Of a DNA stretch of 64,000 bases, positions 23,261 to 45,419 are shown in pieces (position 1 is the stretch's first letter; the number at the start of each line of letters is the position of its first letter). The position numbers were made by a program, and so were the translations under genes. Under the pieces are notes generated by a model. It did no database searches. It was not told the origin of the DNA and worked only from the letters and a program-made list of their open reading frames with translations. The stretch spans positions 258,910-322,909 of the forward strand of contig JACKHP010000002.1 of assembly GCA_020638905.1 (NCBI GenBank). Reading direction: 5' to 3'. The DNA comes from Planctomycetota bacterium (GTDB lineage Bacteria; Planctomycetota; B15-G4).

Positions 23261-24886
<1,626 letters not shown>

Positions 24887-24952
24887 GTGTCTCTCTTGTC
24901 TCGGGTTGGTTCGGGATGGATGTGCGGGTGGCGGGCGAGCGCGCGACGCGCG

Positions 24953-25270
24953 TCAGCCGACCACGGCGAGGATCTCGTCCTCACGCACGATCAGGTACTC
25001 GTTGCCACCGACCTCGATCTCGGTCCCGGCGTACGACGAGAAGATGATGCGGTCGCCGGCCTTGACCTGCATCTTGCGGCGGGTGCCGTCGTCGAGCACG
25101 CGTCCGTCGCCGACGGCGATCACGGTGCCCTCGCGCGGCTTCTCCTTGGCCGACTCGGGCAGCACGATGCCGCCCGCGGTGACCGACTCGGCCTCGAGGC
25201 GCTGCACGAGCACGTTGTCGCCCATCGGGGTGATGTTGACCTTGGTCGTCTTGGCGGTCTTCGTAGCCAT
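24953..25270 (-). CDS. groS: co-chaperonin GroES
   Basis: [54 protein letters not shown]... ATG at 25270. Lies 66 nt upstream of groEL. Confidence 0.95.
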
Positions 25271-25344: not shown

Positions 25345-25794
25345 TCAGGTGAGTCGCAGGTGTTCCTGGAGCAGGAGGCCGACGGCACGTTGCAGCCGGT
25401 CGGCGGAGATCGGCTTGTCGAGGAACGTGGTGCCGACCGACTCGCACGCCGCGCGCACGGCGCGCTCGGGATTGGCCGACATGAAGATGATGGGCAGCGC
25501 CCGGCGCGGGGTGTGGCGCGCGGGGCCCGACGGTCCGCCGATGAAGGCGCCGGCCAGGTATCGCTGGACGACCTCGACCCCGGTCATGTCGGGCATCTCG
25601 AAATCGAGGATCGAGAAGTCGACCGGTTCGCACAGGAGCTGGCGCAAGGCCTCGGCCCCGCACCCCGCGGTGAGCACCCGGAACCCGAACGGCGCCACGA
25701 GTTCGACGACCGAACCGCGCACGGCGACGTCGTCGTCGCCGATGAGCACGGTGAGGCGGCGGGTCTGGGGGCGAGTGGACACTGGCCGGGGCAT
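25345..25794 (-). CDS. stand-alone response-regulator receiver protein
   Basis: VLIGDDD.., [11 protein letters not shown] (phospho-acceptor Asp), FMSAN and LDKP. ATG at 25794. Ends 74 nt upstream of groES. Confidence 0.85.
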
Positions 25795-26103
25795 CCTGCG
25801 GGCGAACGGTCTCCGGCGCGCTCTGACAGCAAACCCAGTGCCAATGGCCGCCAGAGACCCCGGCGAGGGCCGGAGCGTCGGGATGACAGCTCCCCCGGAC
25901 CGGAGCGCGGACCCCGATCCGGCCCACGGCGCCGCCTCGAACGGGCTGCGCGCCTGCTCGCCATTCCCGCGAACTGCCGCGGCAGGGTGCGAGGCGAAGA
26001 CGAACCTCCCGCCGGATGGGGCCCTCGGGACGTGCGCCGCGGCGGTGCGCCTGCCAGAATGACCTGTCCTCCGCCGCGCTCCCGCCCCACCGACGGTGCC
26101 GAA

Positions 26104-31422: not shown

Positions 31423-32970
31423 TCAGATGTAGCGGCTGACCGGGCCCATCGAGCGGCGGATGAGATCGAACGCCTGGAACTCGACGGGCGCCTTCCACAG
31501 GCGGCGACGCAGGCGCACGCCGGCCGACTTGCGCAGCAGCAGCGAGATCGGTCCCTTGCCGCCGGCGATGCCGTCGAACCAGGGCGCCATCTGCGTGAAG
31601 CGCGACCAGACCTTCTGCACCTCGGCCGGGATCGGCCCCCACCACGAGTTGAACTTGTAGTCGAAGAAGCGGCCCCACTGCTCGAAGTTCTCGGGCACGG
31701 GATAGCCGTTGTCGTCGATCGACGGCTGCCAGAACTCGCTGCCGGGGATCGGCCGGTACGGGAAGACCTCGACCGAGCAGCTCGGATACTTGGTCTTCAT
31801 CTCGGCGGCCTGGTGGATCGTGTCGTACATCGACTCGACCGGTTCACCGGGGTAGCCGATGATGTACGTGAGACCCGACTTGATGTCGAGCTGGTGCATG
31901 CGCGACATGGCCTCGTCGGTCATGCCTTCCTGGATGCGCTTGCGGATGAGCTGCTGCGTCTCCCAGGTGGCGGCCTCGGCGCCGAACCACATGAGGTGGT
32001 TGCCGGAACGCTTCATGAGATGCAGCGTGTCCCAGTCGTACTGGGTGATCTGCTTGATCTCGATCGTGCCGTTCCAGTTGATGTTCAGGCCCTTGTCGAG
32101 CAGCGCCTGGCAGAAGTCGACCATGCGCTTCTTGCTCACGCCGAAGTTGGCGTCCTGGAAGCGCAGCACGTCGAAGGGATCCTTGTCGTGGATCACCTTG
32201 AGGCGGTCGACGAGCACGTTCGCGTCGAGCGCGAGCCAGCGGCGTCCGGCGATCTCGGGGCTGCAGCAGAACGCGCACGGCTCGGGGCAGCCGAACGACG
32301 AGAAGTAGCTGAAGCCGCGGAACGGGCGGCCCTGCAGGTGGTGCGGCGGCGGCAGCCTGTTGCGCACGCGGTTGCCGAACTGCGCGGTGCGCTTCTGGAG
32401 CGCGTAGTACTTCTGCACGTCGATCAGGTGGAAGGACGGCTCGGGCAGCTTGTCGAGGTGCACGGCCTCGCGGTGCGGCGTCCAGAACACGGCGCCGTCC
32501 TTCTTGATCACGAGGCCTTCGACGGCAGACAGGTCGGCGCCGCGGCCCTCGGACTTCCAGGCGTCGAGCACGTCGACGAAGGCCAGCTCGCCCTGCCCGT
32601 GCACGACCGCGTCGCAGATGTCGCTCGCGAGGTACAGCTCGGGGATCGCCGACGGGAACCATCCGCCCCACACGATCGGCATCTTCGGGAAGCGCTCGCG
32701 CACCGCCATCGCGACCTTCGCGCCGTCCCAGACCTGGTAGCCGAGGATGCACGAGCTGCCGAACGCCATCGCGCCCTCGCACGCCGCGAGCACCTGCTCG
32801 AGGTAGTCGGGCTCGGTCATCGCGTCGATGATCACGACCTCGTAGCCGGCCAGCTCGGCGCCCGGCGCGATGTGCACGAGTTCGAGCGGCAGCAGGTCGG
32901 CCGAAGGCAGGTCGCCGATCTCGGGATCGACGCGCGACGGCAGGAAGAGGACGACTTTCGGCTTGTTCAC
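31423..32970 (-). CDS. B12-binding-domain radical SAM protein (class B rSAM)
   Basis: The N-terminal block VVLFLPS...GYEVVIIDA resembles a cobalamin-binding Rossmann domain. SSFGCPEPCAFCCS provides the CX3CX2C cluster. GTG start at 32970. Confidence 0.88.
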   Translation of the reverse strand: MNKPKVVLFLPSRVDPEIGDLPSADLLPLELVHIAPGAELAGYEVVIIDAMTEPDYLEQVLAACEGAMAFGSSCILGYQVWDGAKVAMAVRERFPKMPIVWGGWFPSAIPELYLASDICDAVVHGQGELAFVDVLDAWKSEGRGADLSAVEGLVIKKDGAVFWTPHREAVHLDKLPEPSFHLIDVQKYYALQKRTAQFGNRVRNRLPPPHHLQGRPFRGFSYFSSFGCPEPCAFCCSPEIAGRRWLALDANVLVDRLKVIHDKDPFDVLRFQDANFGVSKKRMVDFCQALLDKGLNINWNGTIEIKQITQYDWDTLHLMKRSGNHLMWFGAEAATWETQQLIRKRIQEGMTDEAMSRMHQLDIKSGLTYIIGYPGEPVESMYDTIHQAAEMKTKYPSCSVEVFPYRPIPGSEFWQPSIDDNGYPVPENFEQWGRFFDYKFNSWWGPIPAEVQKVWSRFTQMAPWFDGIAGGKGPISLLLRKSAGVRLRRRLWKAPVEFQAFDLIRRSMGPVSRYI

Positions 32971-33010
32971 GGTGTGGCTCTGGGATGCGTCGTGTACGTC
33001 GCGGCGCGGC

Positions 33011-33271
33011 TCAGCTCGGCGGGTCGCCCAACGCGGGCTCGCGGTTCCCCGACAGGATCGCGGCGACCTCGCCGTCCTCGGGGAAACGCTTCACCTGGCG
33101 CTTGCTGAAGATGAGCTTGCCGTTCTTCACCACCTCGAAGACGCCGCCGTCGCTGGGGACCAGCCGCAGCTCCTCGATCGCGCGCTTGTGCTTCTTGAGC
33201 AGCTCCTCCGCCAGACCGACGGCTCGAGGCTCGTAGTTTCACACCGCGCAGTAGGTGATCTCGATCTTCAC
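33011..33271 (-). CDS. SelW/Rdx-family selenoprotein (CxxU redox motif, in-frame TGA at 33239-33241)
   Basis: AGGAG lies 7 nt before GTG 33271. Translation: VKIEITYCAV-U-NYEPRAVGLAEELLKKHKRAIEELRLVPSDGGVFEVVKNGKLIFSKRQVKRFPEDGEVAAILSGNREPALGDPPS, with stop at 33011-33013. The blocks IxYC..(C/U), L.P...GG.FEV and FP match the Rdx fold pattern. The gene is absent from the ORF track because the TGA splits it. Confidence 0.7.
33205..33229 (-). promoter_or_regulatory. candidate bacterial SECIS hairpin
   Basis: RNA CCUCGAGCC-GUCGGUCU-GGCGGAGG starts 10 nt after the UGA. It has 3-bp and 4-bp helices separated by a small internal loop, and an 8-nt apical loop containing GGUCU (compare the GGUC apical element of E. 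coli fdhF SECIS, from memory). Confidence 0.35.
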
Positions 33272-33490
33272 ACGGGCGCTCCTGGGGGGGACGAAGGGCA
33301 GGTCATCTTATGCCGCTGCGCACGATCCCGCCACTCGGGCGAGGCGGTGCGCCGCCGCACGCGGGGGCGAGGACCGCGGGACGGACCGTCCCCCGCAGCG
33401 CTATCGGCCGCGGCGCGCGTGCCGGTGAAGCCCGATCGGAGGACCTGGGATGGTCCGTCGGGCGATCTCTTGCCTCGCGGATCGGGTGCG

Positions 33491-33610
33491 CGAAGCCGAA
33501 GCCGAAGCCGAAGCCGAAGCCGAAGCCGAAGCCGAAGCCGAAGCCGAAGCCGAAGCCGAAGCCGAAGCCGAAGCCGAAGCCGAAGCCGAAGCCGAAGCCG
33601 AAGCCGAAGC
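33491..33610. repeat. perfect hexanucleotide microsatellite (CGAAGC)x20
   Basis: 120 nt of uninterrupted cgaagc units, read directly from the sequence. Intergenic: downstream of the 33633..34262 gene and about 220 nt upstream of the selenoprotein start. Confidence 0.97.
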
Positions 33611-33632
33611 GCGCGGCTGCGGACGCCTCGCT

Positions 33633-34329: not shown

Positions 34330-34692
34330 TCAGCCGACGAGTTCGCGCACGGTGTCGAGCAGCGTGTGGGCGTCGAACGGCTTGGGCAGCACGCGGGTCG
34401 CCCCCAGGACCGCGGCCATCTCGAGGTAGTGACCGCCCGAAGCGTGCGGGCTGCCGCTCACCGCGATGATGCGCACCGACGGCCGGGCCGCGACCAGCTT
34501 TCGGATGAGTTCGATGCCTTCGACGTCGGGCATGACGAGATCGCAGACCACGAGGTCGGGTGAGACCTCGCGGAAGCGCTCGAAGCCCAGTCGTCCGTCG
34601 CGCGCCTCGTGGACCTCGTAGGACGACTCGAGCACGCGTCGCATCGAACGGCGCGCGTCGTCGTCGTCGTCCACGAGCAAGATCGTCTTCAT
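34330..34692 (-). CDS. stand-alone response-regulator receiver protein
   Basis: MKTILLVDDDDD.., VVCDLVMPDVEG, IIAVSG and LPKPF. GGAGG lies 6 nt before ATG 34692. Confidence 0.88.
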   Translation of the reverse strand: MKTILLVDDDDDARRSMRRVLESSYEVHEARDGRLGFERFREVSPDLVVCDLVMPDVEGIELIRKLVAARPSVRIIAVSGSPHASGGHYLEMAAVLGATRVLPKPFDAHTLLDTVRELVG

Positions 34693-34857
34693 GCCTCGCC
34701 TCCACACGGAGTATCGACTCACCGCGCTGCGCTTCAAGCGTCGGTCGCGTGGGTTGACCGCAGTGATTCCAGAACCCGCGATCACGTGGAGACGCCCTTG
34801 CAGGCGAACGCCCACGGGTGTCTGCTGGTCTCCCGAGATCGGAACGGGAGCCTCCGG

Positions 34858-41458: not shown

Positions 41459-43531
41459 TCAGCCGCCCCGCACCAGCTCGAGGAACTCGGCCTCGGTCAT
41501 GACCTGCACGCCCAGCTCGTTGGCCTTCTTGAGCTTGCTGCCGGGCTTGTCGCCCACCACGAGCACGTCGAGGTTGCTGCTCACGCCGGACAGCAGCTTG
41601 CCGCCGTGGGCCTTCACGAGCTCGTTCGCCTCGCGTCGCGAGAGCTCGGCGAGCGCGCCGGTGAACAGGAAGCTGCGTCCCGCGAGGACGCCCTCGCCGG
41701 CGCGCGCGACGACCGGCGCGGTCGGCGCGAGACCGAGCGCGAGCATGCGGTCGACGTCGGCCTGCTCGCGCTCGTCGGCCAGCCACCCGAGCAGGCTCTC
41801 GGCCACCGCGGGACCGATGGCGGCGACGTCTTGCAGCGCGTCGGCGGTCACGGCGCGCAGTGCGTCGAGCGACGTCCAGCGGTCGGCCACGAGCGCGGCG
41901 ACGGTCTCGCCCACGTGGCGGATGCCGAGCGCGTAGAGGAAGCGCGCGAAGCTGCGCGTCTTCGCCGCCTCGACGCCGTCGAGCACGTTCTGCGCCGAGA
42001 GCTCGCCCATGCGCGGCAGCGCGGCGAGCGCCTCCTTCTCGAGCGCGAACACGTCGGACAGGCGCCGGACGAGCCCCGTCTCGCACAGCGACTCGATGAG
42101 CTTCGATCCCATGCCCTCGATGTCGAGCGCGCCGCGCGAGACGAAGTGCTCGAGCCGCCGCTTGAACACCGCCGGACAGAGCGGGTTCGGGCAGCGCACG
42201 ACGACCTCTTCTTCGTCGTCGACGACGGGCGTCCCGCACACCGGGCAACGCTCCGGCATCGCGAACGGCTCGCCGTCGCCCGCCTCGGTGACCGCCACGA
42301 TCTTGGGGATCACGTCGCCCGCACGCTCGACGAGCACGCGCGCACCGACCTTCACGCCCAGGCGCTCGATCTCGTCCTTGTTGTGCAGCGTCACGTTCTC
42401 GACCGTCACGCCGCCCACGTACACGGGACGGATGACGGCCTTCGGCGTGAGCGCTCCGGTGCGTCCGACCTGGATCTCGATGCGCTCGACCACCGACGTG
42501 ACCTGCTGCGCCGGGAACTTGAACGCGATCGCCCAGCGCGGCGACTTGCTGCGCACGCCGAGGCGCCTCTGGAGCGCGAAGTCGTCGACCTTGATGACCG
42601 TCCCGTCGACGTCGAAGGGCAGCCCGTTGCGCTTCGCCTGCAGCGCATCGTAGTGCGCGAGGACGCTCTCGATGTCGCCCAGCGTGGCGAGCTCGCCCGA
42701 CGTCGGCAGTCCCCACGACGCGATCGTCGCGATCGCCTCGCCGTGGCTCGTCGCAGCGAAGCCCTCGGTGGCGCCGAAGCCGTACGCGACGAAGTCGAGC
42801 GGACGCTTCCGCACCTGCTGCGGGTCGAGCATCTTGAGCGTGCCCGACGCGAGGTTGCGCGGGTTCACGAACGGTTCCTCGCCGGCCGAATCGCGCTCGG
42901 CGTTCACCGCGCGGAAGCTGGCGTGGGTCATGATCACCTCGCCGCGCACCTCGAGCAGCGCCGGCGGCTTCTTCGTCTTCAGCCTGCGTGGCACCGACCG
43001 GATCGTGACCACGTTGTGCGTCACGTCGTCGCCGACCTTCCCGTCGCCGCGGGTCACGGCGCGCACGAGCTCACCCTGCTCGTAGACGATCTCGAGCGCC
43101 ACGCCGTCGAGCTTGGGCTCGATCGAGAATCGCAGCGGGTCGTCGCCGCCCAGGTACGCGGTGATCGACTCGAGCCATTCGAGCACCTCCTCGCGCGAGT
43201 AGGTGTTCGCGAGCGAGAGCATCGGCTGGCGATGCTCGACCGACACGAGGCCCTCGACGGGACGGCCGCCCACGCGTTGCGTCGGCGAGTCGGGCGACAG
43301 CAGCTCGGGATGCGCCGTCTCGACCGCCGCGAGCTCGCGCACGAGCGCGTCGTACTCGGCGTCGGAGATCTCCGGCGCGTCCTTCGCGTAGTAGAGGTCG
43401 TCGTGGCGCCGGATCTGCCGCGTGAGCTCGTCGACGCGGGCGCGCGCACGCTCGAGATCGTCGGACGACGGAGCCTCGGCCTCCGGTTGCTGCGCGGACC
43501 TGCCCGACCTGGACGCCTTCGACTTCGCCAT
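41459..43531 (-). CDS. ligA: NAD-dependent DNA ligase
   Basis: Adenylation motif IEPKLDGVAL. Zn-finger CPVCGTPVV..VRCPNPLCPA. HhH repeats. BRCT C-terminus (FLFTGAL...). ATG 43531, with an alternative GTG at 43540. Confidence 0.95.
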   Translation of the reverse strand: MAKSKASRSGRSAQQPEAEAPSSDDLERARARVDELTRQIRRHDDLYYAKDAPEISDAEYDALVRELAAVETAHPELLSPDSPTQRVGGRPVEGLVSVEHRQPMLSLANTYSREEVLEWLESITAYLGGDDPLRFSIEPKLDGVALEIVYEQGELVRAVTRGDGKVGDDVTHNVVTIRSVPRRLKTKKPPALLEVRGEVIMTHASFRAVNAERDSAGEEPFVNPRNLASGTLKMLDPQQVRKRPLDFVAYGFGATEGFAATSHGEAIATIASWGLPTSGELATLGDIESVLAHYDALQAKRNGLPFDVDGTVIKVDDFALQRRLGVRSKSPRWAIAFKFPAQQVTSVVERIEIQVGRTGALTPKAVIRPVYVGGVTVENVTLHNKDEIERLGVKVGARVLVERAGDVIPKIVAVTEAGDGEPFAMPERCPVCGTPVVDDEEEVVVRCPNPLCPAVFKRRLEHFVSRGALDIEGMGSKLIESLCETGLVRRLSDVFALEKEALAALPRMGELSAQNVLDGVEAAKTRSFARFLYALGIRHVGETVAALVADRWTSLDALRAVTADALQDVAAIGPAVAESLLGWLADEREQADVDRMLALGLAPTAPVVARAGEGVLAGRSFLFTGALAELSRREANELVKAHGGKLLSGVSSNLDVLVVGDKPGSKLKKANELGVQVMTEAEFLELVRGG

Positions 43532-44192: not shown

Positions 44193-45419
44193 TCAGACGT
44201 CCCCCAACCACATCGCGTCGCCGTAGCTGAACAGGCGGAAGCCGGCAGCCACCGCGTGCGCGTAGGCGCGTCGGATCGTCTCGGCGCCGGCGAAGGCCGA
44301 GACGAGCACGAGCAACGTCGAGCGCGGCTGGTGGAAGTTCGTGAGCAGCGCGTCGACCGCGCGGAAGCGGTAGCCGGGTCGGATGAAGAGCCGCGTCGCG
44401 CCGGGCCCAGCGTGCAGCGTCCGTCCGTCGTCGGAGACGGCCGATTCGAGCGCGCGCACGCTCGTCGTTCCGACGGCGATCACGCGTCCTCCGCGGGCGC
44501 GCGTCGCCGCGTAGGCCTCGGCCACCGCGTCGGGGATCGCGTAGCGCTCCTCGTGCATGACGTGCTCGTCGAGCGTCTCGCCGCGCATCGGACGGAACGT
44601 GCCCTCTCCCACGTCGAGCCGCAGCCGCGCGACCTCGACGCCGCGCGCCCGGGCCGCGTCGAGCAGCGCCGGCGTGAGGTGCAGTCCCGCGGTGGGCGCG
44701 GCGGCCGCGGTGCCGAGGGGCGCTCCGGCCTCGCCGAACGCGTCCGGGTTCGCGCCGACGGGGTCGCGGGACGCACCCTCGCCGCCCGCCGCGGTCGGGC
44801 CGCGCGCGAACGTCGTCTGGTAGCGCTCGCGATCGAGGACGTCGCGCGGGTCGCCGTCCTCGGCACGCTCGATGTACGGCGGCAGCGGCATGCGTCCCGC
44901 GTCCGCCATGAGCGCGGGTACGTCGCGTCCGCGGACGACGGCGACGGCGAAGCGTCCCTCGCCGAGCACCGCCTCGACGCGCCACGTGTCGCCCTGGACG
45001 TCGAGCGTCTCGCCGGCGCCGATCGTCCCGCGCGTGCCGAGCAGCACCGTGGCGGCGCGCGCCGTCGCCGCGAGCACGAGCACCGAGACCTTGCCGCCCG
45101 TCGCAGTCCGGTGCGCCGCGAGCCGCGCCGGTGGCACCCAGGTCTCGTTGAGCACGAGCAGGTCGCCCGCACGCAGCACGCCGAGCAGATCGGGGATGCG
45201 CCCCTCGCGCAGGCCCGACGACGCCTCCGCGCCCGCCTCGGCGCTCGCATCCCCGCCGCCGCGCCCCTGCTCTCCGGCGTCGGTGTCGGCTCGCGCGCCG
45301 TCGGCGAACCCGCGCCGGACGAACAGCAGCCGAGCCTGCTCGCGCCGCGGCGCCGGCACCTGCGCCACCGCCTCGGGCGGGTGCTCGAAGTCGTACGACG
45401 CCACGCGCGAGGGATCCAT
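44193..45419 (-). CDS. queA: S-adenosylmethionine:tRNA ribosyltransferase-isomerase (with low-complexity insertions)
   Basis: YDFEHPPEAVAQ, LLVLNETWV, MPLPPYI, TAGLHLT and LLTNFHQPRSTLL. ATG 45419. Confidence 0.88.
   Translation of the reverse strand: MDPSRVASYDFEHPPEAVAQVPAPRREQARLLFVRRGFADGARADTDAGEQGRGGGDASAEAGAEASSGLREGRIPDLLGVLRAGDLLVLNETWVPPARLAAHRTATGGKVSVLVLAATARAATVLLGTRGTIGAGETLDVQGDTWRVEAVLGEGRFAVAVVRGRDVPALMADAGRMPLPPYIERAEDGDPRDVLDRERYQTTFARGPTAAGGEGASRDPVGANPDAFGEAGAPLGTAAAAPTAGLHLTPALLDAARARGVEVARLRLDVGEGTFRPMRGETLDEHVMHEERYAIPDAVAEAYAATRARGGRVIAVGTTSVRALESAVSDDGRTLHAGPGATRLFIRPGYRFRAVDALLTNFHQPRSTLLVLVSAFAGAETIRRAYAHAVAAGFRLFSYGDAMWLGDV

Follow-up and report, generated by a model that had tools for sequence, protein, structure and literature searches.

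SelW-like selenoproteins are a long-known bacterial family of unknown function, described from bacterial genomes and from the Sargasso Sea and Global Ocean Sampling (GOS) metagenomes (PMC1794560, PMC1088965, PMC2398784). A gene of this kind, here called Rdx after its Pfam family, lies in a stretch of 64,000 nucleotides (nt) of planctomycete DNA (hereafter the window; contig JACKHP010000002.1 of assembly GCA_020638905.1), directly upstream of the gene of a radical S-adenosylmethionine (SAM) enzyme. Its product resembles the bacterial SelW-like family (PF10262 / TIGR02174 / NF041051), whose members are small (72–86 residues) with an N-terminal CxxU motif and for which selenocysteine (Sec) is the usual form, with few cysteine homologues. 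SelW-like proteins belong to the most common selenoproteins of prokaryotes, yet for none of them do we know of an established partner or function. There are likewise many class-B radical SAM enzymes whose substrates are unknown. The one paper found to name SelW, radical SAM and bacterial selenoproteins together (PMC1976440) seems from its title to be a selenoproteome survey and probably describes no link between them.

An earlier note on this DNA had placed here a SelW/Rdx selenoprotein gene followed, on the same strand and across 40 nt without a terminator hairpin, by the gene of a 515-residue class-B radical SAM enzyme (rSAM) with a cobalamin-binding N domain and the cluster motif CPEPCAFC. 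Both genes and the gap between them were confirmed by Pfam and NCBIfam scores, invariant cysteines, coordinates, a consensus scan and RNA folding. The note had also proposed that the pair is a dedicated redox partner system, and this proposal was not supported, since the linkage has a single origin, the nearest rSAM clades come from genomes that lack Rdx, Rdx has other neighbours elsewhere, and one relative has split the pair. With a probability of roughly 60%, we regard the pair instead as a probably co-transcribed, historically contingent and vertically inherited juxtaposition of a common SelW-like gene and a clade-specific class-B rSAM gene.

The Rdx gene (33011..33271, minus strand) comprises 86 codons and a stop, with a GTG start at 33271 and the stop codon at 33013–33011. 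A Shine-Dalgarno-like motif, AGGAG, lies 7 nt 5' of the GTG (33279..33283, minus). Translated with TGA read as Sec (U), the product begins MKIEITYCAVU NYEPRA and carries the redox motif CAVU after the first beta-strand, as in the SelW/Rdx family. It scored above the cut-offs of Pfam Rdx (PF10262; 71.9 bits, 4.9e-20, cut-off 22.6), NCBIfam TIGR02174 (58.4 bits, cut-off 34.2) and the NCBIfam equivalog NF041051, 'SelT/SelW/SelH family (seleno)protein' (95.4 bits, cut-off 88). The motif Y-C-A-V-U-N-Y is kept in all 15 loci of clade A, the rSAM clade defined below, and in about 100 more planctomycete loci. The Rdx proteins of the window's own family, f1, have a common C-terminal tail, ...ILTGN(K/Q)xPV(L/V), which is slightly longer than in other bacterial SelW-like proteins; otherwise nothing essential differs. 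By these comparisons, Rdx of f1 is a typical representative of a family found across the phylum and shows no clear specialisation.

The in-frame TGA is codon 11 of the gene (33239..33241, minus) and is conserved in 15/15 clade-A loci; in all 14 syntenic orthologues of other genomes it occupies the same codon and the flanking codons are kept (YCA[VK]-TGA-NYEP[RQ]A). One in-frame TGA was also present in nearly all of the Rdx genes listed from the 156 Rdx-positive genomes among 401 sampled Planctomycetota genomes. As for the decoding machinery, the window's genome encodes SelD (338 bits, above the cut-off; contig C34:332–1258, outside the window) and SelB (296 bits, cut-off 242; contig C6:50341–51429). 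ARAGORN reported no tRNA-Sec among the 45 tRNAs of the assembly, which is 72.7% complete, and the one match above threshold to Rfam RF01852 in this incomplete assembly was tRNA-Ser(UGA), not tRNA-Sec. A hand-specified candidate Sec insertion sequence (SECIS) hairpin, with a 6-bp stem and a 5-nt loop, begins 12 nt 3' of the UGA (33211..33227, minus). Across 15 orthologues 86.7% of its cells were paired, versus at most 57% in slid controls, with covariation that was not significant; RNAalifold gave a weak consensus for the region, and the single-sequence fold was no better than shuffles (z = +1.1). On this sequence evidence we accept the Rdx gene as that of a predicted selenoprotein. The SelD gene of the window's genome itself has an in-frame TGA, suggesting that selenophosphate synthetase is also a selenoprotein here.

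The downstream gene (31423..32970, minus; GTG start at 32970, end at 31423) encodes the 515-residue enzyme. Its class-B architecture consists of a B12-binding domain (PF02310, residues 25–134; 32569..32898, minus; 1.6e-13) and a radical SAM domain (PF04055, residues 225–387; 2.6e-9), and the CxxxCxxC cluster motif is C228-PEP-C232-AF-C235, followed by C236 (32266..32289, minus). C228, C232 and C235 do not vary among the 130 members of the family. C236 is likewise constant in clades A and B, and 95% of the clade-C members have it; the conserved cysteines outside the cluster are C64, C119, C236, C287 and C398. No NCBIfam equivalog, among them BchE, HpnJ, PhpK and HpnR, came close to its cut-off on this protein (best scores of at most 97 bits against cut-offs of 360–750; BchE 96.6 versus 481, HpnJ 83.3 versus 578, PhpK 74.4 versus 600).

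In an AlphaFold model of the enzyme (pLDDT 86, pTM 0.86), the nearest folds by Foldseek, each at probability 1.0, were AprD4, MgmA, TsrM, TokK, CysS and OxsB, with TM scores of 0.60–0.69. The model is about equally far from every solved radical SAM enzyme with a cobalamin domain, and a sequence search of the PDB agrees. Like these six enzymes, the predicted protein starts with a B12-binding domain of Rossmann type and continues with the partial TIM barrel of radical SAM enzymes, which carries CxxxCxxC; unlike them, it belongs to a Planctomycetota-restricted subfamily that usually occurs as tandem paralogue pairs, and it shares only 14–18% identity with them. AprD4 has a B12-binding domain and lacks cobalamin. 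We assign the enzyme, from its sequence, to an uncharacterised subfamily with class-B architecture, in which cobalamin use is predicted.

Homologues of the rSAM were found only in Planctomycetota metagenome-assembled genomes (MAGs) and in one isolate, Rohdeia mirabilis. A scan with one genome per GTDB species returned 379 loci encoding relatives, and among the 401 evenly sampled Planctomycetota genomes the family was present in 33, from four GTDB families. In the rSAM tree, clades C1 and C2 occur as tandem pairs, as do clades B1 and B2, which are sometimes followed by a clade-C copy, and clade A, which holds the window's enzyme, is usually a single gene. The genes flanking clades A, B and C gave no hint of a substrate, in agreement with the earlier observation that no obvious substrate gene stands beside the rSAM: clade A is flanked by the housekeeping genes queA, ligA and groEL and a receiver, clade B by HflK/C-like or MCP genes, and clade C by unannotatable proteins whose sole match was a weak one to DUF1570.

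Several other features of the subfamily were observed. Its tandem paralogues (C1–C2, B1–B2; loci L024–L087, for example L024:1196–4305 and L037:4399–7512, and G024:C119:53567–58245) sometimes stand three in a row, and successive modifications of one substrate would be a natural guess for them. The clade-A rSAM of genome G012 (G012:C7:185176–186798) aligns in two pieces, residues 1–160 and 160–515, at 71% and 85% identity; the pieces are about 75 nt apart, which could come from an insertion, or from a local fault in the assembly or the reading frame, and Rdx still adjoins. Two contigs with planctomycete-type rSAM loci, L014 (JBLIMM010000230.1) and L076 (JBLFXY010000112.1), sit in MAGs labelled Pseudohongiellaceae and Glaciecola, the former contig carrying the full ligA–Rdx–rSAM block; binning contamination is likely for both.

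The two genes of the window are separated by a 40-nt spacer, from the Rdx stop to the rSAM start (32971..33010, minus). The consensus scan of the gap strand found no terminator-like site in it, and by RNAfold neither this gap nor any of 14 orthologous gaps forms a hairpin with a U-run after it; with this one, the gaps range from 22 to 87 nt in length. The same scan found no promoter-like consensus in or around the gap. The GTG of the rSAM gene has no Shine-Dalgarno-like motif 5' of it, and there is no translational coupling over the 40 nt. A short gap without a terminator is as expected of a single transcription unit, suggesting that Rdx and rSAM probably form a real bicistronic unit.

The distribution of the pair was surveyed in the window's GTDB order (42 genomes), in which f1 comprises 16 genomes. 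In f1, Rdx is present in 16/16 genomes and adjoins a clade-A rSAM gene in 15 of them, over 13 genera. In the species-representative set, 14 of the 15 clade-A loci (74–83% identity) have Rdx upstream on the same strand within the range of gaps given above, always in the Sec form. The recurrence of Rdx beside rSAM orthologues, which the earlier note had put forward as a test of its proposal, was thus observed within f1. In the remaining f1 genome (G013, locus L017) the pair is split: Rdx is kept with queA and ligA, whereas the rSAM gene has moved to a different contig, where it lies next to a GT2 gene; neither has lost its integrity.

On the rSAM tree, clade A comprises 17 rows (SH-aLRT 99), of which 15 are linked to Rdx, one is the unlinked gene of L017 and one is a tandem duplicate. 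No Rdx-linked gene was found in the sister clade B or in clades C1 and C2. This topology indicates that the linkage arose once, so that the 15 linked cases would represent one event inherited and not independent associations.

The gene order around the pair was conserved as well. Across f1 the block reads queA–ligA–Rdx–rSAM ... receiver–groES/EL; ligA directly adjoins Rdx in 11 of the 16 genomes, and queA stands beside ligA in most. This background synteny is nearly as strong as that of the Rdx–rSAM pair, and no ligA–Rdx partnership would be inferred from it. The ancestral block can still be made out in the window. FG-GAP genes lie between the rSAM gene and the receiver and groESL (groEL, 23264–24925), and ligA (41462..43441, minus; found by tblastn, 62% identity to the ligA of L018), which lies directly upstream of Rdx in most relatives, is here about 8 kb away, followed outward by queA (44205..45407, minus; tblastn). 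The 40-nt junction is untouched.

Outside clade A, the two genes were found apart. The sister clade B belongs to families f3 and f86, whose genomes have no Rdx at all: in f3, clade-B pairs occur in 9/12 genomes and Rdx in 0/12, and in f86 clade-B enzymes (63–65% identity) are present and Rdx is absent. No small redox gene was found upstream of the clade-B rSAM genes. No cysteine sets clade A apart from clade B, and a clade-A-specific cysteine as the target of Rdx was rejected on this ground. Conversely, families f2 and f5 have Rdx and no member of this rSAM family, and f9 has both, never adjacent. Among the 401 genomes, Rdx occurs in 156 (about 40%), 135 of which lack the rSAM family, and 12 of the 33 genomes with the rSAM family lack Rdx.

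To place Rdx in the rest of the phylum, the regions within 5 kb on either side of 100 Rdx genes outside the order were searched with a diverse set of 11 B12-rSAM proteins. A match was found in one of the 100 loci (L176), about the number expected by chance. Clustering of the open reading frames (ORFs) of 108 Rdx loci revealed no neighbour recurring phylum-wide; the candidates for a universal neighbour were all either families of promiscuous occurrence (ABC ATPases, Ser/Thr kinases) or antisense shadow ORFs, and were rejected. The neighbours of Rdx are lineage-specific; in f2, for example, they are sulfatase, nitrilase or rubrerythrin genes. These results give a clear negative on the generality of an Rdx–rSAM link.

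Other contexts of Rdx were noted in the same loci. In f5, Rdx stands directly 5', on the same strand, of two genes of about 610–690 residues in 4/5 fetched loci (L093–L095, L097); L096 was not resolved, and L093 ends before the second gene. In L094 (1933–6220) Pfam identified their products as an outer-membrane efflux protein (OEP) and an HlyD-type membrane-fusion protein, so that in f5 this selenoprotein has a conserved context of another kind. In eight loci outside the order (L120, L127, L155, L156, L160, L169, L175 and L186), Rdx abuts a frame of about 560–630 residues that clusters with ABC-type ATPases. A second, divergent Rdx with a CHSU motif (MDIRIQYCHSU...) occurs in G009 and G007 (L098:6018–6248, plus strand; L099:6069–6299).

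The course of events that we favour is that, in the ancestor of f1, a clade-A copy of the rSAM gene would have landed just downstream of an ordinary SelW-like gene within the queA–ligA–Rdx–rSAM block, the order of which would thereafter have been passed on vertically. Rdx would then be a general CxxU thiol/selenol oxidoreductase, as in the other Planctomycetota that carry it, and the rSAM enzyme, like its class, would most likely be supplied with low-potential electrons by flavodoxin or ferredoxin and not by Rdx. A CxxU protein of the thioredoxin fold exchanges thiols and selenols in two-electron steps, at potentials of about −200 to −300 mV, whereas the reduction of [4Fe-4S]2+ or cob(II)alamin calls for one-electron donors near −450 to −600 mV, normally flavodoxin or ferredoxin; because of this mismatch, Rdx is a poor candidate for the reductant of the rSAM cluster or cobalamin. 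Several observations weigh against this reading. Both genes are retained in all 16 f1 genomes, and the gap between them is always short and terminator-free, operon partners often being functionally related. In addition, the pair has stayed together somewhat better than its flanks: insertions or rearrangements part ligA from Rdx in at least five genomes of f1 (that of the window and those of L015, L019, L020 and L023), versus one in which Rdx and rSAM are split. Finally, the CHSU-type Rdx of G009 divergently adjoins a different B12-rSAM gene, of 704 residues (L098:3745–5859, minus strand). Its congener G007 has the CHSU-type Rdx without that rSAM, and the window's genome has an orthologue of the 704-residue rSAM without that Rdx; since the adjacency is not kept in G007, we judged the arrangement in G009 to be a coincidence and not a second pairing.

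A functional partnership within f1, in which Rdx would serve as the dedicated thiol/selenol oxidoreductase of the clade-A rSAM, is in our view rather unlikely. In such a partnership Rdx would not reduce the Fe–S cluster; it could possibly reduce a disulfide or sulfenate on the enzyme, substrate or product at each turnover, or protect or repair the rSAM cysteines. Some class III ribonucleotide reductases use thioredoxin, and the two-electron reduction of a turnover disulfide in thioredoxin-dependent radical enzymes is chemistry that a CxxU partner could supply; for Rdx and rSAM, the comparison gave no sign of co-occurrence beyond one family, and the likeness is an analogy. The same-strand adjacency in 15/16 genomes of 13 genera, always with Sec, and the short gaps without terminators are consistent with a partnership, as is the survival of the pair between flank insertions on both sides in the window's genome. 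The adjacency nevertheless has a single evolutionary origin, which makes its 15 cases dependent, it does not recur in independent lineages, and each gene is found without the other. The conserved non-cluster cysteines of the rSAM would offer targets for Rdx, yet clade-B relatives (61–69% identity) have the same cysteines in genomes without Rdx. That G013 has uncoupled the two genes, that the f1 Rdx is an ordinary member of its family and that conservation of the flanking housekeeping genes is comparable also argue against a dedicated module. It is far less probable still that the rSAM modifies Rdx, for instance by methylating a residue in Rdx or in its conserved C-terminal tail. Such an arrangement would mirror the precursor/maturase pairs of ribosomally synthesized and post-translationally modified peptides (RiPPs) and protein-modifying class-B enzymes such as the MCR methylases: a small ORF directly 5' of a class-B rSAM gene is the classical precursor–maturase layout, the protein glutamine methylase MgmA is among the closest folds, and the tail is common to the f1 Rdx proteins. 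Rdx is, however, a folded and conserved enzyme domain with neither a leader/core architecture nor a hypervariable core, it occurs without such an rSAM in 135 of the 401 sampled genomes, and the paralogous rSAM clades have neither Rdx nor a small ORF upstream. The two genes could also share only their position, with an rSAM promoter inside or after the Rdx gene. The rSAM start without a Shine-Dalgarno-like motif or translational coupling would suit independent transcription units, as would the different context of the G013 rSAM, beside a divergent GT2 gene; against them stand orthologous gaps as short as 22 nt and the lack of any promoter-like or terminator-like consensus in or around the gap, and we consider them improbable. 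An inherited, probably co-transcribed juxtaposition remains the reading that we prefer.

Upstream of Rdx, the earlier note had described a YwiC-like membrane protein, a receiver protein and a divergent sensor kinase, and had read them as part of a regulated membrane-associated redox module. Pfam supported the receiver (34330..34815, minus) and the kinase, a dCache/HisKA/HATPase protein on the plus strand. The label YwiC-like was rejected for the 209-residue membrane protein, for which Pfam had nothing better than DUF3792 (E = 0.037) and NCBIfam gave no support. All three genes belong to the 8 kb that separate ligA from Rdx, a stretch present here and not in the relatives examined, and when the membrane protein and the receiver served as tblastn queries, no other f1 locus had a counterpart of them beside the pair. 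The three genes are not part of a conserved module, and the proposed redox module was not borne out.

A 361-nt intergenic region, the presumed promoter region (33272..33632, minus), separates Rdx from the membrane-protein gene; the consensus scan found no sigma-70 consensus in it. It contains a perfect (CGAAGC)x20 microsatellite (33491–33610, 100% matches), which begins 22 nt 3' of the stop codon of the membrane-protein gene. The microsatellite may be a contingency locus or an assembly-prone one, and the junction between the 209-residue gene and Rdx is absent from the fetched relatives.

On the other side of the pair, a receiver-only response regulator (25345–25900, minus) lies upstream of groES/groEL (23264–25270, minus). 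Its homologues (cluster c24) were found in 7/15 clade-A loci, between rSAM and groEL in L009 and L022; the receiver thus belongs to the ancestral block. The FG-GAP genes that stand between this regulator and the rSAM gene in the window were not found there in the loci of relatives.

A true conserved partnership would make both the function of SelW-like proteins and the substrates of class-B rSAM enzymes testable questions. If recruitment in f1 had made a SelW-like protein the dedicated selenol/thiol partner of a cobalamin-type rSAM, or even its protein substrate, which we hold to be doubtful, the pair would give a first functional handle on the SelW-like proteins of bacteria and would be the first radical SAM system to depend on a selenoprotein. 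Since the comparisons point to one inherited juxtaposition, confined to an uncultured family, the pair is no more than a weak lead. Overall, the locus yields a corrected annotation, that of a hidden Sec gene, and delimits a Planctomycetota-specific subfamily of class-B rSAM enzymes that is present as tandem paralogues.

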